Below are positions 38,110 through 58,600 of a stretch of 64,000 bases of DNA, in pieces. The stretch lies in the NCBI GenBank assembly GCA_016926735.1, contig JAFGOA010000080.1:1-64000 (forward strand), in the 5' to 3' direction. The position numbers were made by a program, and so were the translations under genes. The notes under the pieces are model-generated. The model worked only from the letters and a program-made list of their open reading frames with translations. It made no database searches and was not told the DNA's origin. The stretch's first letter is position 1. Each line of letters begins with the position of its first letter. This DNA comes from Promethearchaeota archaeon. GTDB lineage: Archaea > Asgardarchaeota > Lokiarchaeia > Sigyniarchaeales > SOKP01.

Positions 38110-41085
38110 ATGAGTTATACATTCTCAAGAACAAAATTAATTGAAAAAATAAAATTTGGTCTTCTTAGTCCTGATGAAATCAGAAAAATGTCATCTGCAA
38201 GAATTATAACAGCAGATACTTATGATGAAGATGGTTTACCTATTCCTTCTGGCTTAATGGATCAAAGATTAGGTACTATAGAACCAGGACAAAGATGTCA
38301 AACATGTGGTAACCTAGTAAGCAACTGTATGGGGCACTTTGGTCATATTGAATTAGCAAGACCAGTTATCCATGTAGGGTATTCTAAAAAGGTATTAAAA
38401 ATTTTACGGTCAATTTGTCCAGAATGCTCAAGATTGATGCTTTCTGAGGAGGAAAAAGAAAAACTTCGACAAGAACAAATTACTCATCGTAAGATATTTG
38501 CTGAAGGAGATGAAGAAATTACAAGACTTGTTTTTAAAAGAGCAAGGAAAAATAAGGTATGTCCATATTGTGGTGCTAAAAAAAAAAAGATCATTTTAGA
38601 AAAACCCACAACCTTTTATGAAGAGGAAGAGGTTAAAGGGTCAAGAAGATTGACTCCAATCGAAATACGAGAAAAATTAAAGAAAATGATTGATGTGGAT
38701 CTTCGAATTCTAGGAATTTCTCCCCAAAATGCAAGAATGGAATGGGTTGTTTTTACCGTATTGCCTATACCTCCTGTATGTGCGAGACCCTCAATAACAC
38801 TTGATAGCGGAATTCGTTCTGAAGATGATCTTACACATAAACTTGTTGATGTTATAAGAATTAATCAAAGATTAAGAGAAAATATTGATGCAGGAGCTCC
38901 TCACTTAATCGTAGAAGATTTATGGGAATTATTACAATATCATATTACTACTTATTTTGATAATCAAGTATCCGGAATCCCTCCTGCTAGACATCGTTCT
39001 GGTAGAGCTTTAAGAACATTAACTCAGAGATTAAAGGGAAAAGAAGGTAGATTTAGAAGTAATCTCAGTGGAAAACGTGTTGACTTCTCTGCAAGAAGCG
39101 TTATTTCTCCAAATCCCCATATAAGTATTAATGAAGTTGGAGTACCACGTAAAATCGCAAAAATTTTAACTATTCCAACAAATGTTAATGACTGGAATAT
39201 AGAACAAATGAAACAGTTAATCTTAAATGGTCCTAATATACATCCCGGAGCTAATTATATTATTAGAAATGATAGAAGAAGAATAGATTTACGATATGTT
39301 AAAAATAGAAAAATAATCGCTGATATGGTTGCTCCAGGATTCACGGTTGAAAGACACCTTAATAATGGAGATTTAGTTCTTTTTAATAGACAACCTTCTC
39401 TGCATAGAATGTCTATTATGGCACATGAAGTAAAAATAATGATAGGTAAAACCTTTCGCTTAAATCTCACCGTTTGCCCGCCCTATAACGCAGACTTCGA
39501 CGGAGATGAAATGAATCTCCATGTGCCTCAGAGTGAAGAGGCAAGAACAGAAGCAGAATTATTACTAAAAGTACAAGAACATATATTATCACCTCGTTTT
39601 GGCGGTCCTATCTTAGGAGGAGTACAGGATTTTATTTCTACTATTTTCCAATTTACCAGTAAAAATTCTGTGTATAATGTTAAGGATACATTAAAATTAC
39701 TTTATATGGGTAATATTTTCGATTTACATCCCGATTTTGATTTAAATAAAATTGAACCTTATATAAAAGAACCTGAACCAATGTATTCTGGTAAACAAAT
39801 TTTTAGTACACTATTACCAGAAGATTTGAATATAAGAGTAAGATCAAAATTCTGTAAAAAATGTTTTATCAAGGAAGGTCAAAGCTGTAAAGAAGAAAAA
39901 TGCGAATATGATGCTTATGTAACTATCAAAAATGGACACTTAATAGCAGGTACAATCGATGAAAACTCATTTGGAGCTATGCAATCAAATAGTATATTAC
40001 AAAGAATTATCAAAGATCATGGTAATGCAACAGGAAGACAATTTTTAGATAATTCTACAAGAATGCTTCTATATGTTATTAGACTTAATGGAATCACAAT
40101 GGGACTCGATGAAGTATATATTAAAGGGGAATCTCATGAACATATACAACAAGTATTACATGAAGCAACTGAAGAATCGAAAAAATTAATTAAAGCATAT
40201 CGAGAAAATGATACTAAAACCCTTAAAAGAGCTCCAGGACGTTCATTAAAAGAAACATTAGAATTAAGAATCCGGCAAGTTTTAGCTGAAGCAAGGAAAA
40301 AAGCTGAAGAATTAGCAACTCATTTTATTGGTGATGAGGCTCATTCAGTTATTATGACAAAATCAGGAGCAAGAGGAAATATTCTAAATCTTGGTCAAAT
40401 GTCGGCAGTTGTTGGTCAACAAGCTATAAGAGGTGAAAGAATTAACAGAGGATATTCATCAAGAACACTTCCACACTTTAAAGTTGATGACCTCACACCT
40501 AAAGCCAGAGGATTTGTAGAACAATCATACCGCAATGGACTTGAACCCGCTGGCTTTTTCTTTCATGCTATGGGGGGAAGGGAAGGTTTGGTTGATACAG
40601 CGGTCCGAACAAGCACAAGCGGGTATATGCAGCGACGTTTAGTTAACGCTCTACAAGATATGGTAATAGAGAATGATGGAACAGTCCGAAATTCAGATAA
40701 AAATATTATTCAATTTGAATTTGGTGATGATTCTATTAATCCTCAACATACTGATCATGGAGATGCTGTTAATTTGGATGTTTTATTACTTAAAGCAAAA
40801 ACTTTAGATCTTGATGAAATCAGAAATCTTAAATCTAAAAAACCAATAAAAACCTCTAAAACAATAAAAATTGAAGAAAAATCCCCTCAAGCACCATTAA
40901 AACCTACACCAAAACCAAAAACTACATCCAAACAAGAAAAAGTAAAAAAATCTCAAGATTTACCAGATGAGAATGAATTACAGCAACAATTCAAAGACGA
41001 GACTGGAAAGAATGCTGTTTGGAGAGGAAAAGTAACTCAACAATTTATTGAATGGAAAGAACAAAATTATGGGATTAAAGAATAA
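38110..41085 (+). CDS. rpoA1: RNA polymerase subunit A' (Rpo1N) with C-terminal extension
   Basis: [57 protein letters not shown]; no intein. Confidence 0.98.
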
Positions 41086-43472: not shown

Positions 43473-43901
43473 ATGCCAAAAGGATTATATGCTGCACGAA
43501 AACTTAAAGCAAATAGAAAAAAGTTCCGTTGGTCAAAGACAAAATACAAAAGAAAAAAACTGAAACTAAAACAAAAAGTTGATCCTTTAGAAGGAGCACC
43601 TGCAGCTTCTGGAATCGTTTTAAAGAAGGTTGGAAGAGAAAGTAAACAACCTAACTCTGCAATTAGAAAATGTGTCCGAGTACAATTAAAGAAGAATGGT
43701 AAATCTATAACTGCTTCATTACCTGGAGATGGTGCTTTGAATTTTATCGAAGAACATGACAGAGTTATCGTTGAAGGAATCGGAGGTGCTAAAGGTAGAG
43801 CTGTTGGAGATTTACCTGGAGTACGATGGAAAGTGACTAAAGTTAATGGAGTCAGTCTTGATGCTTTAATAAAAGGTATTAAAGAAAAACCAATGAGATA
43901 A
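43473..43901 (+). CDS. rps12: 30S ribosomal protein S12 (uS12)
   Basis: [25 protein letters not shown]. Confidence 0.98.
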
Positions 43902-44112: not shown

Positions 44113-45981
44113 ATGCCAATAAATTGGAATATAGAAGTAATTTCTGCTCTAATAGGTTTTTTTTTCTTTTTGGGATTTAGCTTGTTATTTCTATATCTAT
44201 CAATAAAAAATAAAAATAAGATTTATTTTTCATTGTTTTTTGTCTTTCTCATTTTTACATTCTTTCATATCCTTGAAGCAATGGCTTACCTTTTTCTCAA
44301 TTTTGAAATTAAACGTTTAAGTGCCATTATGTATTCATTAGGATTGTTTACATTAATACTAATCGTAGATTTCGTTTCTAAAGATAAAATAACTTTATGG
44401 AAAAGTATTTTATCAAGTTTTATAATAGGTTGCACTGTTGTATTAGCATTTATTCCAGAAAATATTGTTCTTTATAATCATGAAATCTTTGGATATCCAA
44501 CTTTAGCTTTTTCTGGGGTTTTAAATTATATTAATATTTTTGCATTATTCCTAGTTATATTTCAATTACTTCTATGGTTTTTTAAAGTATGGAAAAATTC
44601 TCCTTCTGAAATAAAAAACCAAGCATTTTTTCTTTTTATTATAGTCATAACCTTCTTTATTTCTATATTTATTATATATTTAACAGGTTTGTGGTTAATA
44701 TTCCCCCTAGGGTATCTTATTGCAGCAGGGTTAATCTCGATAATAATTGTATTTGTACTAAGATATCCAAAACTCTTACATATTTTATCATTTTCTACAT
44801 ATAGGATCATAGTAATTTCAAATATTTCTGGAAACCTATTATTTAATTTATCATGGAATCTTAAAAGTGAAAATCCTGATGAAGAACAAATAATACTTGC
44901 CAAATGGATACCAATTATCCAACACTTAGATATTAAATTCGATAATTCTATAAAAGTATCCGAAATAATACTTAAAAATAATATATTACATTTTAAACGT
45001 GGAGAATATATAACCGCCATTTTTCTCTCTAAAACATCTACTTTTGCCCTTAAAGATGTTTTAAATAACTTTGTTGAAGGTTTTGAGAAAAAATATAACT
45101 TATTGCTCAAAACAGGTATGGATAATAGCTCTTATTATTGTGATGCTATTGAATTAATCGATAAATTTTTTCCTTTAGGTATTATATCACCAATAAATTC
45201 TGATGATTCTTTAAGTAATTATTTGGAAGTTCTAATAAAACAGCGTACTGATAAATTAAAGAAATTAAGTCAAGAATATAAAGAAGCTAATAGATTAAAA
45301 TCACTCTTTATTGCTTCGATGAGTCATGAACTACGTACACCGCTCAATTCTATTATAGGGTTTTCGGAATTAATTCTCTCAGATCCTTTTAATCATTTGG
45401 ATGACACATTAAAGGATTATATCCAATGTATATCTGAAGAAGGGATCTATTTATTGGATCTAATAAATAGAATACTTGATATTTCTAAAATTGAAGCTGG
45501 AAAACTTGAAATATATCCTACTGAATTTGAATTAAAGGATCTAATAGAATCTATAACACAAATGTTATCAGTGAAAATCAAAGAGAAAAATTTAAAATTA
45601 ATCTATAAAATACCAGATTCTATAATTCTTTTTTCTGACATAAATAGAGTAAGACAAATTTTGATAAATTTGATTCAAAATGCAATAAAATTCTCAGATA
45701 AACCAGCTAATATAAAAATTGAAGTGGAATTAAAAGAAAAATTTGTAGAAATTCATATAATTGACTATGGAATAGGGATTTCAAAAAATAATCTTAATAA
45801 ATTATTTCAACCTTTTCAACAAATTGATATGTCTGACTCAAGAAAATATAGTGGTACTGGATTAGGTTTATATCTCTCTAAAAAGATTGTTAAGCTTCTT
45901 GGTGGAAAAATTTACGCTAAAAGTGAATTTGGTAAAGGAAGTGATTTTTATTTTACTATTTTAAAAGAACTTAAGTTTTAA
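44113..45981 (+). CDS. Membrane sensor histidine kinase: 7TM, longin-like domain, HisKA, HATPase
   Basis: Seven hydrophobic segments; MSHELRTPLNSIIGF H-box; NLIQNAIKF, DYGIGI, GTGLGL. Confidence 0.9.
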   Translation: MPINWNIEVISALIGFFFFLGFSLLFLYLSIKNKNKIYFSLFFVFLIFTFFHILEAMAYLFLNFEIKRLSAIMYSLGLFTLILIVDFVSKDKITLWKSILSSFIIGCTVVLAFIPENIVLYNHEIFGYPTLAFSGVLNYINIFALFLVIFQLLLWFFKVWKNSPSEIKNQAFFLFIIVITFFISIFIIYLTGLWLIFPLGYLIAAGLISIIIVFVLRYPKLLHILSFSTYRIIVISNISGNLLFNLSWNLKSENPDEEQIILAKWIPIIQHLDIKFDNSIKVSEIILKNNILHFKRGEYITAIFLSKTSTFALKDVLNNFVEGFEKKYNLLLKTGMDNSSYYCDAIELIDKFFPLGIISPINSDDSLSNYLEVLIKQRTDKLKKLSQEYKEANRLKSLFIASMSHELRTPLNSIIGFSELILSDPFNHLDDTLKDYIQCISEEGIYLLDLINRILDISKIEAGKLEIYPTEFELKDLIESITQMLSVKIKEKNLKLIYKIPDSIILFSDINRVRQILINLIQNAIKFSDKPANIKIEVELKEKFVEIHIIDYGIGISKNNLNKLFQPFQQIDMSDSRKYSGTGLGLYLSKKIVKLLGGKIYAKSEFGKGSDFYFTILKELKF

Positions 45982-45990
45982 TTATAACTT

Positions 45991-46353
45991 TTATAGATAT
46001 TGTCTCAGTTTTTCCTTAAAATCTAAAACTCTTATTGGTTTTGTGATATATTCATTAAAACCAGCATTTAATATTCGTACTTCATCACCTTTCATAGCAT
46101 AAGCAGTAACCGCAAGTATTGGGATAGATTTAAACCTTTCAATTTTTCTTAATTCTTGACAGATTTCTATCCCTGTCATCTTTGGTAACCTAATGTCAAG
46201 AATAATTAGATCAGGACTACCAGATTTTATAAGTTCTAATCCTAAATCGCCCTCCACTTCTTCAAAAACTTCTATTTCAGGAAATTGTTTCAGAATCGCC
46301 TTATATAATTTCATATTTTTTGGATCATCTTCAACAATATATACCTTTTTCAT
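45991..46353 (-). CDS. Single-domain response regulator, DivK-like
   Basis: IVEDD, LIILDIRLP, AVTAYAMKGD, YITKPI. Confidence 0.93.
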   Translation of the reverse strand: MKKVYIVEDDPKNMKLYKAILKQFPEIEVFEEVEGDLGLELIKSGSPDLIILDIRLPKMTGIEICQELRKIERFKSIPILAVTAYAMKGDEVRILNAGFNEYITKPIRVLDFKEKLRQYL

Positions 46354-46590: not shown

Positions 46591-48015
46591 ATGTCAAATT
46601 CATCAAAGACAATAATCAAGTATTTCTGTGATAGATTTTTAAACTTAGAATACTATCCTGAAAACATTAAAACCATTTTAGATCTTCCTTTAGACAAATT
46701 AAAAGATACAAAGAAAGAAGAAATTTCAATATTAAACAATATTAATATTAATACTATTCGAGATTTTGCTTCTATTGATATGTCAATTTATGATACATTG
46801 TTAGAGTCATCAACCCTTACTGAAAATACTTTAAAAAAGCTTTATATTGCATCAAAACTAATTGCAAATGCTTGGGGAAAAAGAACTACCTACCTTAAAA
46901 AACCTCAAATGAAAGTAATTGTTGCCGGTTTAGATTATGCTGGAAAAACTTCTTTAATCAATAGATTAATGAATGATTATAATTATAATGATGTAATTAA
47001 TTTAGAACCAACTGTTGGAGTTAATGTAGAAGAATTCAAATCAGAAAGATTAAATCTGATTCTATGGGATTTGGGAGGACAAAAAAATCATATTGATGAA
47101 TATCTTGAAGAACCTGAAAGATTTTTTATTCAAATGGATGTATTAATTTTCGTTATAGATTCCCAAGATGATGTAAGATATGATATAGCAATAAAATATC
47201 TTAATGATTTAATAGAAATTTTAGGATATTTAGATGAATTTCCTTTTATTCTTGTACTGCTAAACAAAGCCGATACTGATATAATAAATGATCCTGATTA
47301 TCAAATCAAATTGGAATATATTACTGAAAAAGTAACTGATTTATTCATAGAACATGAAAAATCATGGATTGTGGAAATTATTCCTACAAGTATATATAAT
47401 TTTTATTCTAATACCCCTGAAATTGCAAAAAATATTAAAAATATATTTTCAAAAGATATCAGTCAACAAAAAGACGATAAACTACCAGAAATTGAAAAAA
47501 AGGTGCAAAAAATACTAGATATAAATCTCCAATTTATGGATAAAATCTCAGCTGATCTTGCGGAAATAAAAAAGATTATGTTTAGAACACTACCAACGGC
47601 TATTTCGGGTTCATTATTTGAAGTTCCATTTCAAAAAGTTTCTTTTGAAGAGCAGCCTGAAAAAAAAAAGAAAAAGAAAAAACTAAAGCCATCCAAAAAA
47701 ACTTCTATCCCTCAAGTAATCCCTTCAATTAAATTACCCCAAAAAACTCAAACTACACTACTTGATCAAATAAAAAATGTCCAATTAAAACCTCCAGCTA
47801 TATCTTCTGATCCAAATAATCCCCCAATGGCCCCACCAAAAACTCAGAGAATTGAAGGATTGAATCCTCCACCAAAATCTACAGAAAAACTCACATCTAA
47901 ATTAGAAAGTTCTCAAGAATCAAATCAAGAACCCCCTATTAATCGTGCCCAAACAAGGCAACAAATAATATCAGAATTGAAAGATTTGTTTGTTAAAAGA
48001 GGTATTGTTGGATAA
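46591..48015 (+). CDS. Arf-like GTPase with N-terminal HhH-like domain and polybasic/WH2-like/Pro-rich C-terminal tail
   Basis: GLDYAGKTS, EPTVGVNVE, LWDLGGQ, FVIDSQD..R, LNKAD. Confidence 0.88.
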   Translation: MSNSSKTIIKYFCDRFLNLEYYPENIKTILDLPLDKLKDTKKEEISILNNININTIRDFASIDMSIYDTLLESSTLTENTLKKLYIASKLIANAWGKRTTYLKKPQMKVIVAGLDYAGKTSLINRLMNDYNYNDVINLEPTVGVNVEEFKSERLNLILWDLGGQKNHIDEYLEEPERFFIQMDVLIFVIDSQDDVRYDIAIKYLNDLIEILGYLDEFPFILVLLNKADTDIINDPDYQIKLEYITEKVTDLFIEHEKSWIVEIIPTSIYNFYSNTPEIAKNIKNIFSKDISQQKDDKLPEIEKKVQKILDINLQFMDKISADLAEIKKIMFRTLPTAISGSLFEVPFQKVSFEEQPEKKKKKKKLKPSKKTSIPQVIPSIKLPQKTQTTLLDQIKNVQLKPPAISSDPNNPPMAPPKTQRIEGLNPPPKSTEKLTSKLESSQESNQEPPINRAQTRQQIISELKDLFVKRGIVG

Positions 48016-48295: not shown

Positions 48296-48937
48296 ATGCA
48301 TTCATTCAATGAATTAAATGATCTTCTTGATAATTTACCTTTTATCGTTATAATTGGAAAATATGATCATATACTTGGTCCTAGAGCTATTTTCTCTCCA
48401 ATTAAGATCGTTGATGATCAATTTATACGAAATCTACTTCGCGATGCTTTAAATACAAAAAATAAATTTGTAATTCTTAATTATGATGATTTCTATTCTC
48501 AAGTATGTAAGGTAGATGTTAAGGATGAAACTGCAAGAGGGAAAAAACAACTATATGCTATTATCTTACTAAGGCATGTCGATTATCCATTGATCCCAAC
48601 GGTCTATTTTCAAAGGATCGAAATGATATTTAGAAAACTAGGGGAAAAAAAAATACTCATTGATGATGAATCCATTTTTAATAAATTTGCTGAGGAAATT
48701 CAAAATATTTATCTTGAGAAAAATGAAATAATTCCGCTAGAATCTGCAAATCTTGAAATCAGAAGTGAGATTAATACAATAAGGGGTTTTTGTGAATTAA
48801 TTCTTGAAGAAAAAGACAAATCAGGTAAATTATCTGATGATTTAGTAATAAGATATGTCGAAATTATATTAGATTCATGTGATGATATAATTGAAACAAT
48901 AGAAAAGAATATGCATAATCAATTACAGGGAAATTAA
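48296..48937 (+). CDS. uDENN/folliculin-like longin domain fused to degenerate HisKA
   Basis: KYDHILGP and VKDETARG..QLYAII; C-terminal LEIRSEINTIRGFCELIL mirrors HELRTPLNAIIGFSELIL. Confidence 0.6.
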   Translation: MHSFNELNDLLDNLPFIVIIGKYDHILGPRAIFSPIKIVDDQFIRNLLRDALNTKNKFVILNYDDFYSQVCKVDVKDETARGKKQLYAIILLRHVDYPLIPTVYFQRIEMIFRKLGEKKILIDDESIFNKFAEEIQNIYLEKNEIIPLESANLEIRSEINTIRGFCELILEEKDKSGKLSDDLVIRYVEIILDSCDDIIETIEKNMHNQLQGN

Positions 48938-48959: not shown

Positions 48960-49853
48960 ATGACCAATAAAAAAAAAATCATATTAGTAGGTCCTCCTGC
49001 CGCGGGGAAGACTACAATAACAAAAGTATTTTTCCAAAAATCTAACCCTAAAATTTTATTGGAAAAACCTTTAGAACCAACGAGAGGTGTACATACATCA
49101 CTTTTTTCATTATTTAACTCAGAATTAGGAATCTTTGACTTGGCTGGACAAGAAAATCAAAACTGGTTTTCAAAAGATAATGATATTTTTGAACATTCTA
49201 ATATAATAACTTGTATTTTTGATATAAATAGTTCGTTAGAAAACATAACTTCATTTTTAAATAACATAATTGATATAAAAGCAAAATTTGATTCCCTCTC
49301 AGAGTGCAAAATATTTAGTTTTCTCCATAAGATTGACACTGTAGACAATTCATACTTAAATGAGAAAATTAATGCAATTAAAAATTATTACAAAAGAAAA
49401 TTTCCTTCTAATGGATTTTATATGGAAATATTTGGCACTTCTATTGCTAAAGAAAATTATTATCCTACATTTCATATTCTTTCAAACATATTAATTTCTA
49501 TTTATCCAGAGGATAATGCATCAATAAATTTGTCTGAATATGAAAATATAAAACAAGATCTAAAAATTATTGCAAATTGTAAATTATCTGTTAAATATAA
49601 GGTTCTTAATCTCTCGAATAAATTTAATCTTAGTTTTGATGTTCTTAAATTCCATTTAGAGAGATTAGATAAGCTAGGAATGATTGAATATTTATCATAT
49701 AAGAATTTTATTCGATTAACTTATAGAAGTGAATTATTAAAAAAAGATCTAAAAAAAGAAATCGATGATATGGATAAAATCAGGGAAGATAATGATATTA
49801 AACTTTTCAATATTTTTCTAAATCTTAATAAAATCCCTTTATCAGATTTTTAA
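48960..49853 (+). CDS. Rag/Gtr-like GTPase with C-terminal winged helix
   Basis: GPPAAGKTT..VFF, LEPTRG, FDLAGQE, FLHKID, GTSI; wHTH pattern LSNKFNLSFDVLKFHLERLDKLGMIE...IRLT. Confidence 0.82.
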   Translation: MTNKKKIILVGPPAAGKTTITKVFFQKSNPKILLEKPLEPTRGVHTSLFSLFNSELGIFDLAGQENQNWFSKDNDIFEHSNIITCIFDINSSLENITSFLNNIIDIKAKFDSLSECKIFSFLHKIDTVDNSYLNEKINAIKNYYKRKFPSNGFYMEIFGTSIAKENYYPTFHILSNILISIYPEDNASINLSEYENIKQDLKIIANCKLSVKYKVLNLSNKFNLSFDVLKFHLERLDKLGMIEYLSYKNFIRLTYRSELLKKDLKKEIDDMDKIREDNDIKLFNIFLNLNKIPLSDF

Positions 49854-50020: not shown

Positions 50021-52255
50021 ATGAACATTAATATTGTTAAAATTCTTTCAATTTTAGATCATATTGAAATTTTAGATTATATAAGAACAATTTTAAATTC
50101 TTCAAATAGATTCAATTATGAACTTTTTAGTTGTAATTCAATTAAAAAAGGAATGGATTTTATATCGAATTATCAGATAGATATAATAATTCTAGGATTA
50201 TATCTTCTTGATAGTAATGGATTTGAAACATTTTATAATCTAAGATTAAAAACAAGAAATATACCTATAATTCTTATAGTTTCTCAAGAAGATGAAGGAA
50301 TAGCAAAAAATGCTGTTCAATTAGGTGCCCAAGAGTATTTAATTCAAGAACAAATAAATCCAGAATTACTGGAACATTATATTTTTACAGCAATTACTAG
50401 ACATAATATGATGCTCACAATTGAATCTTTAGCTAATAAAATTCAAGAAAATGAACAATATTTAAAACAGATTATAGAAAAAAACATTGATTCAATTATA
50501 ATCACAGATAAATGTGGTAAAATTCGTTATGTAAATCCATCAGCTGAAAAACATTTTAATAAAACCAAGGAGGAATTGTTAGGACAATTATTTAAAGATT
50601 CTTCATTTAAGGAGAGAAAAATAGGTTTCAATATTATTCAAAATAATGAACTTACATCAATTTCAGAGGTCCACACTGTAGAGATAGAATGGGAAGGGCA
50701 ACCCGCATATTTTTTCTCAATAAGAGATATTTCAGAACGTAAACAAATTGAGCATATGTTAAAAGAATCTGAAAAAAAATATACTCTTTTATTCGAGAAA
50801 TCACCTCATCCTATATTAATTTTAAATTTAGAAGGTTTTATAATAGATAGTAATTCTGTAGTAGAAGAATTGATTGGATTTTCAAAAAGCCAGATTATTA
50901 ATCAAAGATATGAAAATCTAATTCTATTTCCAAAACAATATCTCCATGTTTTTAATATGATTTTTAATGCTCTAAAAGAAAATAAAATTCCTGATCCTTT
51001 AATTTTGAATATAAATAGAGAATTTAAAAAAGATCTATGGCTCAATATGAATTTTTCATTAATTAATTTAGATAATCAAAAGTTAATTTTCCTTTTAATT
51101 CAAGATATTACTGAAATACGACAATCAAAACAAGAAGTAAGAATACTTGAGCAAACTTTGCATGAAATGAATGCTCTAATAGAAAATGCTCCTTCAGCTA
51201 TTTTTTTACTACATCAAAATGGAAAAATATTAAGAGCGAATAATAAATCAAAAGAATTATTTGGTTATGAAGAAGAAGAATTTCTTAATTCTAAAATTTT
51301 GGATCTGTTTGATCCCGAATATTTAGAAATTGTAAAAAAACACTATACAAATGATATTTATGAATCATTAAAAGATAACTCTTTAGAAGCAAAAATCATA
51401 AAAAAAAATGGAGAATTTATCAATGTAGATATAGTATCAAATATCATAAAAATTGCTGATAATATAATAATACAATCATTTATTTCTGATATAACCTCAA
51501 GAAAAGATTTCGAAAGAAGTAGAGAACAATTATTGGATCAATTGATAAAATCTCTTGAGTATAAATCAAAATTTTTTGCTGCGATGTCACATGAATTGAG
51601 AACTCCTCTGAATGCAATCATAGGATTTTCGACATTATTAATTGATGGAGGATATGGTGTATTAAATGATGATCAAAAGGATTATTTAAACGATATATAT
51701 ACTGCTGCTGAGCATTTAAATGGATTAATTAATTCTATATTAGATCTCTCAAAAATTGAAATTGCTAAATTTAAATTAGAAAAAGAAGAATTTCAATTAT
51801 ATCCCATCATGCAACAAATTCATTCAATATTTAAACCCATCTATATGAAAAAAAAATTATATTTTAATTTGGAAAATGTTGATCAACATACTGTAATATT
51901 TGGAGACCAAATGAGATTCAGACAAATACTTTATAATTTAATTGATAATGCTATAAAATTTACAAGTAAAGGTGGTATAGAGGTAAAGGGATTCGAAAAA
52001 TATGATCATTGGGAATTTCAAATTATAGATTCTGGTGTTGGGATTGATAAAGAAGATTATGATGTTGTTTTTAGAGAATTTGGGAGGATTGAAAATGATC
52101 TTACCAAAGATGTAAGTGGTTCTGGCATTGGATTAGCTTTAACTAAAAGGTTAGTTGAACTTCATGGTGGAGAAATATGGTTTGAAAGTCAAAGAGGAAA
52201 AGGAACTACATTTTATTTTACGATTCCAAAAAAAAAAGGTGATAATCATAAATAG
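50021..52255 (+). CDS. Cytoplasmic histidine kinase: pseudo-receiver, 3 PAS, HisKA, HATPase
   Basis: REC-like N-terminus; PAS ends RDISERK, QDITE, SDITSRK; MSHELRTPLNAIIGF; NAIKFT; GSGIGL. Confidence 0.92.
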   Translation: MNINIVKILSILDHIEILDYIRTILNSSNRFNYELFSCNSIKKGMDFISNYQIDIIILGLYLLDSNGFETFYNLRLKTRNIPIILIVSQEDEGIAKNAVQLGAQEYLIQEQINPELLEHYIFTAITRHNMMLTIESLANKIQENEQYLKQIIEKNIDSIIITDKCGKIRYVNPSAEKHFNKTKEELLGQLFKDSSFKERKIGFNIIQNNELTSISEVHTVEIEWEGQPAYFFSIRDISERKQIEHMLKESEKKYTLLFEKSPHPILILNLEGFIIDSNSVVEELIGFSKSQIINQRYENLILFPKQYLHVFNMIFNALKENKIPDPLILNINREFKKDLWLNMNFSLINLDNQKLIFLLIQDITEIRQSKQEVRILEQTLHEMNALIENAPSAIFLLHQNGKILRANNKSKELFGYEEEEFLNSKILDLFDPEYLEIVKKHYTNDIYESLKDNSLEAKIIKKNGEFINVDIVSNIIKIADNIIIQSFISDITSRKDFERSREQLLDQLIKSLEYKSKFFAAMSHELRTPLNAIIGFSTLLIDGGYGVLNDDQKDYLNDIYTAAEHLNGLINSILDLSKIEIAKFKLEKEEFQLYPIMQQIHSIFKPIYMKKKLYFNLENVDQHTVIFGDQMRFRQILYNLIDNAIKFTSKGGIEVKGFEKYDHWEFQIIDSGVGIDKEDYDVVFREFGRIENDLTKDVSGSGIGLALTKRLVELHGGEIWFESQRGKGTTFYFTIPKKKGDNHK

Positions 52256-55022
52256 CAGTAAATATAGTATTCAAGATATTTTTAGTTCTTTTTTAGATAA
52301 TTCTTTAGATATAATTTATATATTTGATATTAATGGGAAATTTATTGATATTAATGATATTGCTTTAAAATTATTTGAATATAATAGAGAAGAGCTCTTT
52401 AATAAATCTTTTGTAGAAATATTGGATAAAGGACAAGATGAAAAATTTTTTACTCTATTAGACAATCTCAAAGCTAATGTTAAAAAATCCAATTATATAA
52501 ATTATAAAGTTAACACTAAGAATGGTAATATTATATTATTAGATACATATACTATACCGATAATGAATAATAATCTCATAGCAATTATCAATATATCTAA
52601 GATTATATCCAATAAAGATCATATTTATAAAGATTCTAATAGACATGAATTTAATTTTAGCAATATTTTTGATCATATTCCTGTTGGATTTCATTTATAC
52701 TCATTAAACGCAAAAGATCAATTAATTTTAAAAGATTCAAATCCCGCAGCTAATGAAATTCTTGGGATTGACTCCTCAAAATTACTATTAAAACCAATTG
52801 AAGAAATATTTATTTCCTATAAAGAATCCGATATTCTTAAAAGATATATAAACATTGCTAAAAATGGTGGTATAGAGAAATGGGATCATATTGAATATCA
52901 CCTTGATGCTATTGAAGGAGCATATGAAATAATTGCATTCCAATCATCTCCAAATAATATAGTAGTTTCTTTTGTAGATATAACTAAACGAATAACATAT
53001 GAAAAAAAATTAGAGGAATCTGAATCAGAATTACGTAATTTATCTGAAGAATTGGAAAATAAAATTTCGAGAAGAACAAAAGAATTATATGAATCAGAAG
53101 AATTATATAGAAATCTATTTGAGAACATCCCTAATGCTATTATTCTAATGGATATGAATAAAAATTTTCTAATAACAAATCCTGCATTTAATAAAAATTT
53201 TGGTTATAAAGGAGATGAGTTTATTGGCAAAAATATACAAGAAAATTGTTTTTGCACAGAACCATCTTTAAAAAAAATCTCTGACTCATTATTAAAAATA
53301 GAAAAAGATAAGAAACCAGTAATGTTTGAAGCAGAAATATATAGAAAAGATAATACTATAGCAAAGATTTTTGTTCAATTAAATCTAATTGAATTTGAAG
53401 AATTAGAGTTAATATTACTCATTATACAAGATATTTCCAATTTAAAATTTGAACAAGAAAAAGCTAAACTATATTTAGAAACTGCAGGTGTTATAATTGT
53501 AGCTTTAGATAAAAAAGGTAATATTAATTTACTAAATAAAAAGGGTTGTGAAGTATTAGAATACGAACAAAATGAACTAATTGGTAAAAATTGGTTTAAT
53601 AATTGCATTCCTATAAATTACAGAGATAAAATAAAAAAAATTTTTGAAGATATTATTGAAAATAAGAATGTAAATATAGAATTTTATGAGAGTCCTATTA
53701 TTTCTAAAAGTGGTAAAGAAAAGATTATAGCATGGCATAATACCATTCTATATGATAATAATAACGACGTTTTAGGAACATTGAGTTCTGGAGAAGATGT
53801 AACTGAAAGAAAAAAAATGGAAGTAGAATTAAGAGAATCAGAAATTATATACCGTAAATTATTTGAATCACATATTGATGGAATTATTATGATGGATCTT
53901 AATGGAATGTTTATCGATGCTAATAAAACTTTCTTAGATATGAGCGAATATAAATTAGCACAATTAAAAAAATTCTCTATTTTTGATATAACACCAGAAA
54001 AATGGTATGATGATATAAAAACTATAATAGATAGTAAATCTAAAACATTGTCTAGAGAATTCGATATAGAACTTAAGAAAGAAAATGGAACTATCATTCC
54101 AATTAATTTAAAATTATGGACAAAAACTGATATATATAATGAACCTTCTGGTTTCTGGGCTATTATAAGAGATATTTCAAAAAAAAAACAAGATGAATTA
54201 TTACAAATAGAATTTAGGAAACGTTTAGAAAAAGAAGTTAAAAAAAGGACAAAAGAACTCAATAAAGCTTTAGAAAAACAAAGATTATTTCAATCAGAGA
54301 TTATTAAAGCTTCTAAATTCAAATCTGAGTTTCTCGCTACTATGTCACATGAATTAAGAACACCATTAAATGCAATAATTGGATTTACAGAATTAATGTT
54401 AGATGAATCATTTGGTACATTAAACAAAGAACAGTATGAATATATGATGGATATAAAAACCTCCGCTGAACATCAATATGATATGATAAGTAGCATTCTA
54501 AATATTACTCAAATAGAATCAGGTCAAGTAATTCTAAATAAACAACAATTTTCTATAAATACTATCATTGATCAAGTTATATCTACAATCAAACCTATGT
54601 ATACAAAAAAAAAAATACAATTTATCGTTGAAGGATTGGAATCAGATATAAAAATATTAGCTGATCCTTTAAGAATAAGAGAAATACTCATTAATCTATT
54701 AACTAATGCAATAAAGTTTACAATCGAAGGGAAAGTCAAATTAATTATTAAAGAATTATTTGATAAATGGGTTTTTAAAGTAAGAGATGAAGGAATCGGA
54801 ATCGCTCAAGAAGATTTTGATATTATTTTTCGAGATTTTTCAAGAGTTGATTCTGCTTATGTAAGATCTACGCCAGGTACAGGATTGGGACTTTCTTTAA
54901 CAAAAAGATTAGTTGAATTACATAATGGAACAATAAATTTTACGAGTGTTTTAGGAGTAGGGACAACTTTTACATTTACTATTCCCAAACCTTCAGAAGA
55001 ATACGATTTAGATTCCTATTAA
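52239..55022 (+). CDS. Cytoplasmic multi-PAS (about 5) histidine kinase
   Basis: PAS ends VDITKR, QDIS, EDVTERK, RDISKKK; MSHELRTPLNAIIGF; GTGLGL; start likely GTG 52239 or ATA 52248 rather than TTG 52155, which lies deep inside the upstream gene. Confidence 0.92.
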   Translation: MIIINSSKYSIQDIFSSFLDNSLDIIYIFDINGKFIDINDIALKLFEYNREELFNKSFVEILDKGQDEKFFTLLDNLKANVKKSNYINYKVNTKNGNIILLDTYTIPIMNNNLIAIINISKIISNKDHIYKDSNRHEFNFSNIFDHIPVGFHLYSLNAKDQLILKDSNPAANEILGIDSSKLLLKPIEEIFISYKESDILKRYINIAKNGGIEKWDHIEYHLDAIEGAYEIIAFQSSPNNIVVSFVDITKRITYEKKLEESESELRNLSEELENKISRRTKELYESEELYRNLFENIPNAIILMDMNKNFLITNPAFNKNFGYKGDEFIGKNIQENCFCTEPSLKKISDSLLKIEKDKKPVMFEAEIYRKDNTIAKIFVQLNLIEFEELELILLIIQDISNLKFEQEKAKLYLETAGVIIVALDKKGNINLLNKKGCEVLEYEQNELIGKNWFNNCIPINYRDKIKKIFEDIIENKNVNIEFYESPIISKSGKEKIIAWHNTILYDNNNDVLGTLSSGEDVTERKKMEVELRESEIIYRKLFESHIDGIIMMDLNGMFIDANKTFLDMSEYKLAQLKKFSIFDITPEKWYDDIKTIIDSKSKTLSREFDIELKKENGTIIPINLKLWTKTDIYNEPSGFWAIIRDISKKKQDELLQIEFRKRLEKEVKKRTKELNKALEKQRLFQSEIIKASKFKSEFLATMSHELRTPLNAIIGFTELMLDESFGTLNKEQYEYMMDIKTSAEHQYDMISSILNITQIESGQVILNKQQFSINTIIDQVISTIKPMYTKKKIQFIVEGLESDIKILADPLRIREILINLLTNAIKFTIEGKVKLIIKELFDKWVFKVRDEGIGIAQEDFDIIFRDFSRVDSAYVRSTPGTGLGLSLTKRLVELHNGTINFTSVLGVGTTFTFTIPKPSEEYDLDSY

Positions 55023-55037
55023 ATTTTATTTTATTAT

Positions 55038-56339
55038 TTATTTTGATTTTTTTCTTAAATAATAATAATCATTAATTTTTCTTCTTATTTTTCCCATAAG
55101 AATAATTAGTTTGTTCACATCCATTGATTCTGAAATCAAGATTAAATTTTTGATTGAAAATTTTTGAAGATTAAGATAATTTAAAATAGTATTAATTGAT
55201 TTTGAGCTTGAAATTATAAGATGTGCTATATTATCATTTAAAACCATATTTTCAAATGATTGAGTTATCTGTGCTATCATTTTATGAATATGATTTATTA
55301 AGATCGTATTAAAATCTCTTGACATAGATTGTATTATTATTGAATTGTTATTATTTGTGATATAACACATAGATTTTGGAGTATTAATAAAAGATTCATC
55401 TAGTATTTTTTTTATCTCAAAAGAATCTTCAGAAAAATTACTAATAATACTATAAAAAGCGTTGTAAAGATTATATATTAATTTTGGATATATACTTGTA
55501 AAATATATTAAACCATTAAAATCTTTTTTAATCTCTTGAAGTACGTTATCTCTTTTATTTTCCTCTATTAAATCTATTTTATGAAGAAAAAGGATAAATT
55601 CAACTTTATTATTTTGATTCTTTATTATATTCCTGATTTTTTCTATGTCTGTGAATATCATTTTTTTTTGAGAATTCCATAAAGATACATCAAAAAGATA
55701 TATAACTATATCTGTATTTTCAAATGCTAAAGTCTGTTCCATTGTTTCATCATTAAGTAGATCTTCAATTTCCTGACCGGAGGTATCAAATAAACCTAAT
55801 TTTGCATCTAACCAAGAATAAACTGAAGGTGTAATCCCTCGAGTTGGTTCTAATGGATTATATAATAATTTTCTTGGATCTTTTCCCTCAAATATTATTT
55901 CTTTGATAGTACTTTTACCAGTTCCAGCCCTTCCCAAAAGTAATATTTTTTGTGCTGTTCTTTTTTGAAAAAATTTATCCATATTATCATAGAAAAACCT
56001 TTTTCTTTCTTCTCTATGTTTGCTAAACAATGCTTTCCCGAAATCTAGGAGATCTTGTTTTAATTTATATATATTTTCCTTTTCTATATCTTCAATAACA
56101 ATAACAATAACTTCATATCCTACCTGTGCTACTCTATTTTTATCACAATAGCTAATAATCGTTTGATTATTAAAAGTTACTTCAAGTAATTCTTCTTTAT
56201 TAAAATCTTCATTAAAGGCGTGGGACATATATATTTTTTGGGTTAAAGAGTTTGAAATATCAAATCTTTCTGGATATTTTAAATCTAAAATAGACCCAAT
56301 TTTTTGATCCCAAATAAAGACAGCAATACCTTCAGGCAT
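55038..56339 (-). CDS. Longin-like domain, Rag/Gtr-like GTPase and roadblock-like C-terminal domain
   Basis: N-term GIAVFIWDQKIGSILDLKYP; GRAGTGKSTIKEIIF, LEPTRG, FDTSGQE, FLHKIDLI, FTSIY; C-terminal alpha/beta domain as in Rag GTPases. Confidence 0.82.
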   Translation of the reverse strand: MPEGIAVFIWDQKIGSILDLKYPERFDISNSLTQKIYMSHAFNEDFNKEELLEVTFNNQTIISYCDKNRVAQVGYEVIVIVIEDIEKENIYKLKQDLLDFGKALFSKHREERKRFFYDNMDKFFQKRTAQKILLLGRAGTGKSTIKEIIFEGKDPRKLLYNPLEPTRGITPSVYSWLDAKLGLFDTSGQEIEDLLNDETMEQTLAFENTDIVIYLFDVSLWNSQKKMIFTDIEKIRNIIKNQNNKVEFILFLHKIDLIEENKRDNVLQEIKKDFNGLIYFTSIYPKLIYNLYNAFYSIISNFSEDSFEIKKILDESFINTPKSMCYITNNNNSIIIQSMSRDFNTILINHIHKMIAQITQSFENMVLNDNIAHLIISSSKSINTILNYLNLQKFSIKNLILISESMDVNKLIILMGKIRRKINDYYYLRKKSK

Positions 56340-56492: not shown

Positions 56493-56864
56493 ATGACTAA
56501 AAATGTATATGTTATTGAAGATAATGAAAAGAATATGAAATTATTCAAAGCTATCTTAAATTTAATTCCTAACATTCAAATCTTTACAGAAACTCAAGGA
56601 GATTCAGGATTAGAACTTATAAAATCAGGTAATCCTGATCTTATTATTCTTGATATTCAATTACCCAAATTGAGTGGGATTGATATAACAAAGGAATTGA
56701 GAAAAATTGAAAGGTTTAAATCTGTTCCAATTATCGCTGTGACTTCTTTTGCTATGAAAGGTGATAGAGAAAGAATTCTTAAGGCAGGAATAGATCAATA
56801 CATATCAAAACCTATAAAAGTACAAGAATTTCGAGAAAAAGTTACTGAAATTTTAAAAATATAA
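56493..56864 (+). CDS. Single-domain response regulator, DivK-like (paralog of 45991..46353)
   Basis: VIEDNEKNMKLF, LIILDIQLP, AVTSFAMKGDRERI, YISKPI; GAGGT upstream. Confidence 0.93.
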   Translation: MTKNVYVIEDNEKNMKLFKAILNLIPNIQIFTETQGDSGLELIKSGNPDLIILDIQLPKLSGIDITKELRKIERFKSVPIIAVTSFAMKGDRERILKAGIDQYISKPIKVQEFREKVTEILKI

Positions 56865-57982: not shown

Positions 57983-58600
57983 ATGAGTGAAAAAGAAAAC
58001 GATATCAAATTATTAGATCGATGGTCTTATGATGATGTTGAGATCAAAGATTGGACACTTGAGAGATATATTAATTTAAAAAAAATTATCATACCTCACT
58101 CATGTGGAAGACATGAAAAAAAGACTTTTTGGAAAACTTCAAAAGTATCAATCATAGAGAGATTTGTTAATCGATTATTATCTCCTGGATTTATAGCAAC
58201 CAAAACTAAAGGACGTAAGAGTTCTTATCATCAAGGTAAAAAAAGTCTTATTTTAAAGACAGTAATGAATGCTTTCATTCTTATAGAATTGAAAACAGGT
58301 AAAAATCCTATTCAAGTATTGGTTGATGCAATTTCAAATACTGCTCCACGAGAAGAAATTACAAGAATTGCAATGGGAGGTATATCATATAGCTCTGCTG
58401 TAGATATTGCTCCTCAAAGACGTATAGACTTAGCAATTAAATATTTAGTCCAAGCTATAGGTACATCTGCTCATGGAAATATTAGAACTTTTGAAGAAGC
58501 AATAGCTCAAGAATTAATTCAAGCGGCTAAAAACAGCCAAGATTCAAAAGCTGTTAAAAAGAAGGATGAAATCGAGAGAATTTCCTTATCTGCAAGGTAA
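57983..58600 (+). CDS. rps7: 30S ribosomal protein S7 (uS7)
   Basis: PHSCGRH, IIERFVN, NPIQVLVDAI.N.APREE, AVDIAPQRRID, KKDEIERI..SAR. Confidence 0.97.
   Translation: MSEKENDIKLLDRWSYDDVEIKDWTLERYINLKKIIIPHSCGRHEKKTFWKTSKVSIIERFVNRLLSPGFIATKTKGRKSSYHQGKKSLILKTVMNAFILIELKTGKNPIQVLVDAISNTAPREEITRIAMGGISYSSAVDIAPQRRIDLAIKYLVQAIGTSAHGNIRTFEEAIAQELIQAAKNSQDSKAVKKKDEIERISLSAR

Follow-up and report, generated by a model that had tools for sequence, protein, structure and literature searches.

We describe a gene at positions 44113 to 45981 (+) of a 64,000-nucleotide stretch of DNA (the window; contig JAFGOA010000080.1 of assembly GCA_016926735.1, positions 1 to 64,000) from a Promethearchaeota archaeon, an Asgard archaeon of Loki type. 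It encodes a 622-residue histidine kinase made up of a seven-transmembrane (7TM) bundle, a middle domain predicted to adopt the longin fold, and a HisKA-HATPase transmitter. The first two parts belong to a 7TM-longin protein family that is near-universal and multi-copy in the phylum and whose copies mostly lack the kinase. We lean towards the reading that the protein is a functional class-I membrane sensor kinase whose input cassette is the 7TM-longin part, that the longin domain serves as a transducer or partner platform, and that the tail was swapped once for HisKA-HATPase.

The gene is a single ATG-initiated open reading frame (ORF), and it is not a chance frame because it is conserved: a word search found three close homologues of the kinase, the middle domain has 86 relatives, and nine further loci encode it at full or nearly full length. 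Pfam places HisKA at residues 396-463 (E 6.4e-20, 71.4 bits) and HATPase_c at residues 509-617 (E 1.7e-27, 96.5 bits), both over cut-off. All of the catalytic motifs are intact, namely the H box SHELRTPL with the phospho-acceptor H405 (codon CAT, 45325-45327), the N box (519-527), G1 (551-556, DYGIGI), F (565-570) and G2 (581-586, GTGLGL), and residues H405, N523, D551/G553/G555 and G581/G583/G585 are invariant across six orthologues. With its H, N, G1, F and G2 boxes, the protein can be assigned from its sequence to the class-I (HisKA) sensor histidine kinases. The kinase equivalogs of NCBIfam all stayed below threshold for it, the best being TorS (228 bits vs 676).

AlphaFold2, given an 88-row alignment, modeled the full-length kinase with a mean predicted local distance difference test score (pLDDT) of 86.4, and ten-residue block means ran from 79 to 98 over the transmembrane (TM) region (residues 1-220). 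The model has seven TM helices between residues 7 and 217; Kyte-Doolittle hydropathy over residues 5-228 gives six hydrophobic stretches, of which the final one (167-228) could hold two helices. The fourth inter-TM loop bears a conserved beta-hairpin (118-133), around which P115/E116/N117 and G127/Y128/P129/T130 are conserved among kinase orthologues. Given the positive-inside rule, with K-rich loops 1, 3 and 5, and because the kinase must be cytoplasmic, the N-terminus and this hairpin should lie outside and those three loops in the cytoplasm. The juxtamembrane motif that leads from TM7 to the first longin strand has the family consensus PKLxYILPF (column frequencies P219 0.89, L225 0.91 and F227 0.80), and the sole element before strand b1 is a four-residue helix or turn (220-223). 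Past the longin domain, residues 359-365 have a pLDDT below 50, and a 60-residue helix (364-423) then carries H405. Against Pfam, the 7TM part scored E 0.012 and 15.9 bits for 7TMR-DISM_7TM (cut-off 29), and no 7TM profile matched at E ≤ 0.01 among 59 relatives. An Atlas feature score of 0.88 to a cluster with 48% HisKA_7TM members is a lead only.

Modeled alone (residues 215-375, same alignment), the middle domain reached a pLDDT of 83.2 and a predicted template modelling score of 0.77. In both AlphaFold2 models, DSSP assigns two strands (229-236, 242-247), a helix (255-275), three strands (284-286, 291-296, 300-306) and two helices (311-333, 339-352), giving a compact domain with the order bb-a-bbb-aa: no N-terminal helix, one helix of 21 residues joining b2 to b3, and a five-stranded sheet against which two C-terminal helices pack. 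According to the available part of Tran et al. (PMC10933270), roadblock domains have an N-terminal and a C-terminal helix, RBLC7 domains are without the C-terminal helix, and longins have no N-terminal helix and a second C-terminal one.

Comparison with solved structures gave a consistent answer. Foldseek against the PDB returned 13 matches at E ≤ 1e-3, every one a longin-fold chain (nine AP sigma chains, Sec22b, one TRAPP core subunit and two Fuzzy entries), with query-normalised TM-scores of 0.44-0.56. VIA-align, run against 48,161 representative chains, gave 44 chains at Z ≥ 8; judged from entry titles, ranks 1-33 are longin proteins or longin-built complexes (Z 8.9-12.1), led by Sec22 (Z 12.1, root-mean-square deviation 3.8, 124 aa), VAMP7 (11.7), SYBL1, sedlin and synbindin (11.6 each). 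Further down come Fuzzy (11.0), small and medium chains of AP and COPI, the SRX domain of SR-alpha, Mon1-Ccz1, Lst4 and a Lokiarchaeial longin (9.0), with GATOR1 and FLCN-FNIP2 entries at Z 7.6-8.1. The first roadblock chain is MglB at rank 34 (Z 8.7, 103 aa), which aligns to model residues 11-120 only; roadblock chains as a class (Z 7.2-8.7) cover about 93-107 residues (model 9-120) and stop short of the last helix. The best 50 rows of each search were considered; those of Foldseek are longin and roadblock entries plus two flagellar-doublet entries whose chains are not identified by title. A roadblock/LC7 identity was rejected on the missing N-terminal helix, the two C-terminal helices, the lower Z scores and the lack of a Robl_LC7 match. 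The family profile run against PDB sequences matched kinase cores and otherwise returned noise, with no match for the middle domain. Because the modeled order fits the longin description and the best solved matches are longins, the models confirm the middle domain as a predicted longin fold over its whole length, helix a3 included.

A similar bb-a-bbb core is common to longin, roadblock, PAS and GAF domains (the SCOP profilin-like fold class), and this domain occupies the slot between membrane anchor and DHp in which a PAS or GAF domain would be expected. It might instead, then, bind a small cytoplasmic molecule as PAS and GAF domains do, with the 7TM bundle mainly a membrane anchor, and an NCBIfam MASE3-PAS kinase model does align along residues 7-616, at 164 bits vs a cut-off of 560. 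We consider such a ligand sensor very unlikely. PAS domains have several short helices between b2 and b3, GAF domains a six-stranded sheet with flanking helices, and neither has a C-terminal helix pair on its sheet; the single long b2-b3 helix, five strands and two packed C-terminal helices found here fit neither arrangement. No PAS or GAF chain appeared among the best 50 rows of either fold search, and a Pfam scan that detects PAS in neighboring kinases found neither PAS nor GAF on residues 228-353. Conserved positions of the domain in the 88-row alignment are mostly hydrophobic core, with no evident pocket motif, and the 7TM part, with its conserved outside hairpin, is as conserved as the longin domain.

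A first-pass annotation of this gene, made from the DNA letters alone, had described seven hydrophobic helices, a soluble domain of about 125 aa at 44797-45171 (residues 229-353) and an intact HisKA-HATPase. It had read the strand and helix order as that of a longin sitting where PAS, HAMP or GAF is normally found, to be abandoned should the insert fold as a standard PAS or GAF domain. The models, fold searches and motifs bear out this architecture in each of these respects; its further proposal, that a small GTPase gates the kinase or is recruited by it, is taken up below.

The architecture is best understood against the family from which its input half comes. HMMER with residues 215-375 against 1.84 billion representatives found 86 proteins at E ≤ 1e-3, and in almost all of them the domain starts at about residue 215, behind a homologous 7TM region. 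These relatives stop just past the longin domain (about 340-370 aa) or 55-70 residues later (about 427-443 aa), the roughly 435-aa paralogues ending in an acidic helical tail. Only the closest relatives carry the kinase, with Pfam HisKA/HATPase in 5 of 59 scanned members, and the names that databases give the relatives are 'hypothetical protein' or 'signal transduction histidine kinase', and in no case longin. At E ≤ 1e-5, the family profile matched 189 of 201 sampled genomes of the phylum, including all 86 of high quality, and 56 of 59 genera. The source genome has 18 family matches, 11 of them at E < 1e-100, and the kinase is present on the window copy only. In a tree built on the 7TM-longin columns (70 rows, after 18 of the 88 were dropped as N-terminally incomplete), the six kinase rows form one group on a long branch (SH-aLRT, an approximate likelihood-ratio branch test, 100), and among the matches listed kinase-length frames occur in family f1 only. 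On these two grounds, a single fusion event would be enough to explain the kinase form.

The kinase-less copies suggest what the cassette does elsewhere. A protein of about 240 aa recurs beside them; Pfam gives it a weak HTH_24 match only, and its sequence suggests to us a series of winged helices. In the source genome, the eight best-scoring matches to its profile (E ≤ 1.2e-67) all adjoin a 7TM-longin gene, and none lies on the window's contig. The two also occur as a natural fusion, a 676-aa Lokiarchaeota protein (P0017) in which the partner aligns at residues 440-667 (hhalign probability 100%, E 7e-56). The same longin subtype recurs in the source genome in other company (Table 1): behind large N-terminal regions that look receptor-like by eye, for which Pfam offers a weak beta-propeller repeat match in the 908-aa protein only, behind TPR repeats, and ahead of a TrmB-type winged helix. 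In our reading, the domain serves Asgard sensors generally as a cytoplasmic transducer or partner platform and is usually accompanied by winged-helix proteins, and the 7TM-longin protein and its winged-helix partner may be a membrane-to-transcription signaling pair.

These proteins also bear on the possibility that the longin is a passive dimerisation spacer that keeps the two kinase chains paired but transmits nothing. In crystals, Asgard roadblock and longin proteins do form dimers (the available part of PMC10933270; title of PDB 8yqg). In class-I kinases, however, the DHp hairpin already dimerises the chains, and hundreds of kinase-less proteins retain the domain along with the conserved juxtamembrane motif, a pattern that favors a function linked to the 7TM sensor; a mere spacer seems to us highly improbable.

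Under the reading we prefer, most family copies, ending in an acidic helical tail, would work with the adjacent multi-winged-helix protein, to which they are sometimes fused, and in one lineage the tail would have been swapped once for the HisKA-HATPase transmitter. The 7TM bundle would sense a membrane or outside signal, with the 118-133 hairpin as a candidate site. The signal would shift the position or pairing of two longin domains that, through the PKLxYILPF motif, hang directly from TM7, and this shift would set autophosphorylation of H405 within the kinase dimer. Transmission by domain contacts is favored over a rigid helix because the linker at 359-365 is modeled, at low confidence, as flexible. 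The phosphoryl group would then pass to the neighboring output-less receiver (45991-46353), which would feed the PAS kinases, receivers and Rag-like GTPases that surround it. The direction of signal flow, the choice of receiver and the action of the longin through dimer or partner contacts, not as a GTPase regulator, are what the architecture and the neighborhood suggest; the nearby GTPases may act downstream or in parallel, and are less likely to be direct longin partners.

Table 1. Features of the kinase gene, its neighborhood in the window and related genes of the source genome (G000).
Feature	Position	Strand	Basis
7TM-longin-HisKA-HATPase_c sensor histidine kinase, whole gene, 622 aa (P0001)	44113..45981	+	ORF list, Pfam, AlphaFold2
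Seven TM helices, residues 7-33, 36-61, 64-90, 95-112, 135-162, 165-190, 197-217	44131..44763	+	hydropathy, AlphaFold2
Juxtamembrane motif PKLLHILSF, residues 219-227, TM7 to first longin strand	44767..44793	+	alignment column frequencies
Longin-fold domain (predicted), residues 229-352	44797..45168	+	AlphaFold2, Foldseek, VIA-align
Linker, residues 353-363, longin a3 to signaling helix	45169..45201	+	AlphaFold2
Long helix and DHp hairpin, residues 364-423 and 431-461	45202..45495	+	Pfam, AlphaFold2, motifs
Catalytic ATP-binding domain, residues 469-617	45517..45963	+	Pfam, AlphaFold2, motifs
Stand-alone receiver, 120 aa (E8/D9/D10, D53, T83, K105)	45991..46353	-	Pfam Response_reg E 8e-25
Gtr1/RagA/Arf-like GTPase, 474 aa, N- and C-terminal extensions	46591..48015	+	Pfam Gtr1_RagA E 2.3e-22, Arf E 2.5e-22
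213-aa protein, N-terminal folliculin-like region, C-terminal HisKA-helix-like stretch	48296..48937	+	weak Pfam, BLASTP
Rag-like GTPase, 297 aa, winged-helix-like C-terminal region	48960..49853	+	Pfam Gtr1_RagA E 1.1e-16
Two soluble PAS histidine kinases: 744 aa REC-PAS-HisKA-HATPase, 955 aa multi-PAS-HisKA-HATPase	50021..55022	+	Pfam
Gtr1/RagA-type GTPase, 433 aa, ~125-aa N-terminal and C-terminal extension	55038..56339	-	Pfam Gtr1_RagA at 130-344
Second stand-alone receiver	56493-56864	+	Pfam
Fourth Arf/Rag-like GTPase, 269 aa	57013-57822	+	Pfam
7TM-longin paralogue and winged-helix partner, loci L013-L019, L021	contigs C41, C192, C153, C228, C95, C97, C69, C16 of G000		
Same longin subtype behind large N-terminal region and single hydrophobic helix, 796 aa	G000 C74:260-2647	-	
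Same longin subtype behind large N-terminal region and single hydrophobic helix, 908 aa	G000 C153:6410-9133	+	
Same longin subtype behind TPR repeats, 731 aa	G000 C19:6541-8733	-	
Same longin subtype ahead of TrmB-type winged helix, 239 aa	G000 C115:6807-7523	+	

The window is archaeal DNA of about 25% GC. The kinase follows genes for rpoA'/A'', L30e, NusA and S12 and opens an island of about 14 kb between the S12 (43473-43901) and S7 (57983-58600) genes, which are usually adjacent in archaeal operons. The island holds three kinases, two receivers, four Rag/Arf-like GTPases and one longin-like protein (Table 1). Its first receiver gene converges on the kinase gene across a 9-bp gap. A receiver adjoins the kinase in three orthologous loci too (L026, L028 and L029), that of L028 being 67% identical to the window's, and the window receiver is the likely cognate phospho-acceptor.

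The 213-aa protein, which lies between two Rag-like GTPases, has weak Pfam matches to Folliculin (E 0.0022) and HisKA (E 0.011), both under cut-off, and bears G28-P29-R30, the motif type of GAP-type longins, those related to GTPase-activating proteins (GAPs). It aligns to the H-box region of the kinase by BLASTP (E 6e-4) with a gap at S404-H405 and no histidine counterpart. On these weak matches, it may be of the kind described in the available part of Liu et al. (bioRxiv 10.1101/2020.10.19.343400), an NPRL2-like longin fused to two-component domains. An hhalign comparison of the 7TM-longin family profile with the 213-aa protein found no relation (probability 0.2%), and for this reason the kinase longin and the folliculin-like longin look like different subtypes. 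NCBIfam gave nothing for the 213-aa protein, for a 7TM-longin paralogue or for the winged-helix partner.

Among the GTPases of the island, the 297-aa protein is the one most consistently retained beside the kinase; in L028 and L034, GTPases 41% identical to it adjoin the orthologous kinase. Proteins of its family are about 290 aa long and widespread (125 proteins at E ≤ 1e-10), and one source names a relative 'GTPase SAR1 family protein/predicted transcriptional regulator'. The idea that the tail of the 297-aa GTPase is the equivalent of the paralogues' winged-helix partner found no support (hhalign probability 0.8%, E 0.069). The 433-aa GTPase is 51% identical over its full length to a 437-aa protein upstream of the L028 kinase, and its extensions may be longin and roadblock domains of the kind found in Rag proteins. 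The low-complexity K/P-rich tail of the 474-aa GTPase resembles the Lys/Pro-rich C-terminal extension of about 100 aa on RpoA' (38110-41085). Orthologues of the PAS kinases adjoin the kinase in L028 and L034. In the window their frames overlap at 52155-52255, the 955-aa frame starting with TTG about 100 bases inside the end of the 744-aa gene; its true start is probably further downstream.

Full-length or near-full-length orthologues of the kinase, at 42-90% identity, occur at nine public loci of archaeal metagenome-assembled genomes, and a genome search added two further loci. Five gene arrangements can be told apart. The window shares the first (A) with L026, whose kinase is 90% identical and has the same upstream genes, and whose contig ends past the receiver. 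In the second (B: L028, L029 and L107), two PAS kinases and two Gtr1-type GTPases precede the kinase, which is followed by the receiver, a Gtr1-type GTPase, Ras and later a roadblock gene; here orthologues of the receiver, of both the 297-aa and the 433-aa GTPase and of the PAS kinases are present, at 41-74% identity. In the third (C: L034), the kinase is accompanied by a PAS kinase and an Arf/Gtr1 GTPase. The fourth (D: L030) sets it between ABC transporters and genes for phosphate uptake; a gene of the Ras type lies about 4.8 kb off. The fifth (E: L032 and L104) has a methyltransferase, endonuclease V and a flavoprotein, and in L104 a receiver 3 kb off; no GTPase lies in the 3-8 kb seen at these two loci. 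The clustering of kinase and Rag-like GTPase genes is genuine, but not all loci show it.

Several observations weigh against the sensor-transducer reading that we prefer. The longin fold is a prediction, identity to solved longins is 8-18% and the TM-scores to them reach only about 0.52-0.56. Residues 228-353 had no credible Pfam match, and no longin model (Longin PF13774, Fuz_longin_1 PF19036, Folliculin PF11704) reached E ≤ 0.1. The links in sequence are faint: a weak Fuz_longin_1 match (E 1.4e-3) in 1 of 59 relatives, and a weak Longin match under cut-off (E 0.0046) in the 239-aa homologue of the same genome. The window receiver is convergent and not co-transcribed with the kinase, and since the island has two more kinases and a second receiver, the pairing of kinase and receiver is uncertain. 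Finally, a Rag/Arf-type GTPase lies within 5 kb of the kinase at five of the nine loci with usable flanks (the window, L028, L029, L107 and L034), which represent three gene arrangements and are not independent; a pure transducer role does not explain this clustering, which leaves room for a direct connection to GTPases.

Such a connection would make the protein a GTPase-coupled kinase. One of the island's Rag/Arf-like GTPases would bind the longin, which would act as effector site, guanine nucleotide exchange factor or GAP, so that nucleotide state gates autophosphorylation, or the receptor would recruit or activate the GTPase at the membrane. The eukaryotic longins with solved complexes mostly bind small GTPases (Mon1-Ccz1/Ypt7, Fuzzy-Inturned/Rab23, FLCN-FNIP2/Rag, TRAPP/Ypt1, AP and COPI/Arf1, SRX/SR-beta). 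Of the genome's 15 best Gtr1/RagA-type matches, four are found no more than 12 kb from the kinase, and orthologues of the 297-aa and 433-aa GTPases stand beside orthologous kinases at 41-51% identity, with the kinases themselves at 42-56%. In addition, the b1-b2 loop has a glycine in 85 of 88 rows and a proline at +2 in 42 of 88, at the site of the GP motif of GAP-type longins. In FLCN, NPRL2, SMCR8 and C9orf72, this motif closes the b1-b2 loop and neighbors an arginine finger (PMC12290439, as far as its available part goes).

On the other side, the window copy reads S-G240-N-L-L-F at this loop, with neither the GP motif nor a proline, and the family glycine precedes a variable residue, so that the mark of GAP-type longins is absent. 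R231 on b1 is shared by 68 of 88 rows, and an arginine finger could not be placed. The kinase-less loci of the source genome point the same way: 120 ORFs scanned at 10 loci with 11 paralogues included no Ras, Arf or Rag family gene, the sole GTPase being of the Obg/DRG type (one locus), and because all 10 loci are without a small GTPase, GTPase linkage is not a property of the 7TM-longin module. A Robl_LC7 gene occurs at another of these loci, where a 116-aa Roadblock/LC7 frame (L013:9276-9623, -) lies just past a winged-helix partner that itself adjoins a 7TM-longin paralogue, on contig C41. Nor does a Rag/Arf-type gene lie in the flanking DNA covered at L030, L032 and L104, and the folliculin-like GP-R protein of the island, together with the GTPases' own extra domains, offers more obvious regulators. 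A complex prediction between the longin (residues 224-364, 88 rows) and the 297-aa GTPase (89 rows) scored 0.01 and 0.00 (mark 0.32) and speaks neither for nor against binding. We judge direct GTPase coupling to be unlikely. As for the proposal in the first-pass annotation, Rag/Arf-like genes do adjoin the kinase, both here and in two other arrangements of orthologous loci; the gating or recruitment itself stays a conjecture. A broader version, in which 7TM-longin proteins are archaeal receptors resembling G protein-coupled receptors, the longin docks or exchanges Rag/Arf-like GTPases and the kinase form wires this route to a phosphorelay, we regard as more doubtful still. If true, it would mean that the longin-GTPase membrane logic of Ragulator/FLCN, TRAPP and Mon1-Ccz1 already served signal reception in Asgard archaea.

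Longins rank as eukaryotic signature proteins in Asgard archaea and are mostly treated as precursors of the machinery for membrane trafficking. A predicted longin as the cytoplasmic module of a membrane sensor, in a near-ubiquitous family, suggests that signal transduction is a major, and possibly older, job of the fold in this phylum, and the kinase-less copies with their winged-helix protein suggest a simple membrane-to-gene route. The kinase-fused copy is the most tractable member, in that autophosphorylation and phosphotransfer offer readouts for 7TM sensing, for the role of the longin and for Rag-like GTPase binding, and it thereby opens to experiment a large family of Asgard membrane proteins that has so far gone uncharacterised.

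Literature searches, whose scope stopped short of figure 5c and the supplementary tables of Liu et al. and of subscription journals, found no published 7TM-longin kinase or 7TM-longin family. Fusions of longin and two-component domains in Asgard archaea are already published (Liu et al., in the part available), and like the window kinase they combine a eukaryote-type longin with two-component domains in one chain near Rag-family GTPases. As described there, they have NPRL2-like longins, whereas the predicted longin of the window kinase is closest to SNARE, TRAPP, adaptor and Fuzzy longins (Z 11-12), lacks the GP motif and stands behind a 7TM sensor. Kinases with a 7TM input (7TMR-DISM_7TM PF07695, HisKA_7TM PF16927, MASE3-PAS) share the seven-helix input, a cytoplasmic linker domain and HisKA-HATPase_c, but their linker is PAS, HAMP or GAF where the window kinase has a predicted longin, and its 7TM part falls under every curated threshold. 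The eukaryotic GTPase-regulator longins (Mon1-Ccz1, Fuzzy-Inturned, TRAPP, FLCN-FNIP, GATOR1 Nprl2/3, SRX) have the same predicted fold over about 120-135 residues with both C-terminal helices, as do the SNARE longins Sec22, VAMP7 and Ykt6; at 8-18% identity to these, the window domain differs in being tethered to a 7TM sensor and a kinase and in lacking the GP motif.

One analogy for kinases that communicate with small GTPases is the MglA/MglB polarity module of Myxococcus, which receives input from the Frz kinase. Actinobacterial conservons provide a prokaryotic precedent for such cross-talk, and, as the available parts of two reports describe them (PMC13343842, PMC13621833), consist of four separate proteins encoded in one operon, the CvnA kinase, the CvnB roadblock protein, CvnC and the CvnD GTPase. 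The window differs from these in having a predicted longin, a member of the roadblock superfamily, fused inside the kinase, in its Rag/Arf-like GTPases and in its archaeal lineage. Membership among conservons was rejected, as the scanned island genes contain no Pfam Robl_LC7 and use both strands, while CvnC-like (DUF742) genes were not searched for, and the likeness is one of analogy only. The nearest counterparts are the kinase-less Asgard 7TM-longin proteins, which share with the window kinase a homologous 7TM bundle, the juxtamembrane motif and the longin (20-35% identity), but of which the shorter ones (about 350 aa) end past the longin and the longer ones (about 435 aa) in an acidic tail; in the source genome, they pair with a multi-winged-helix protein in place of carrying a kinase.

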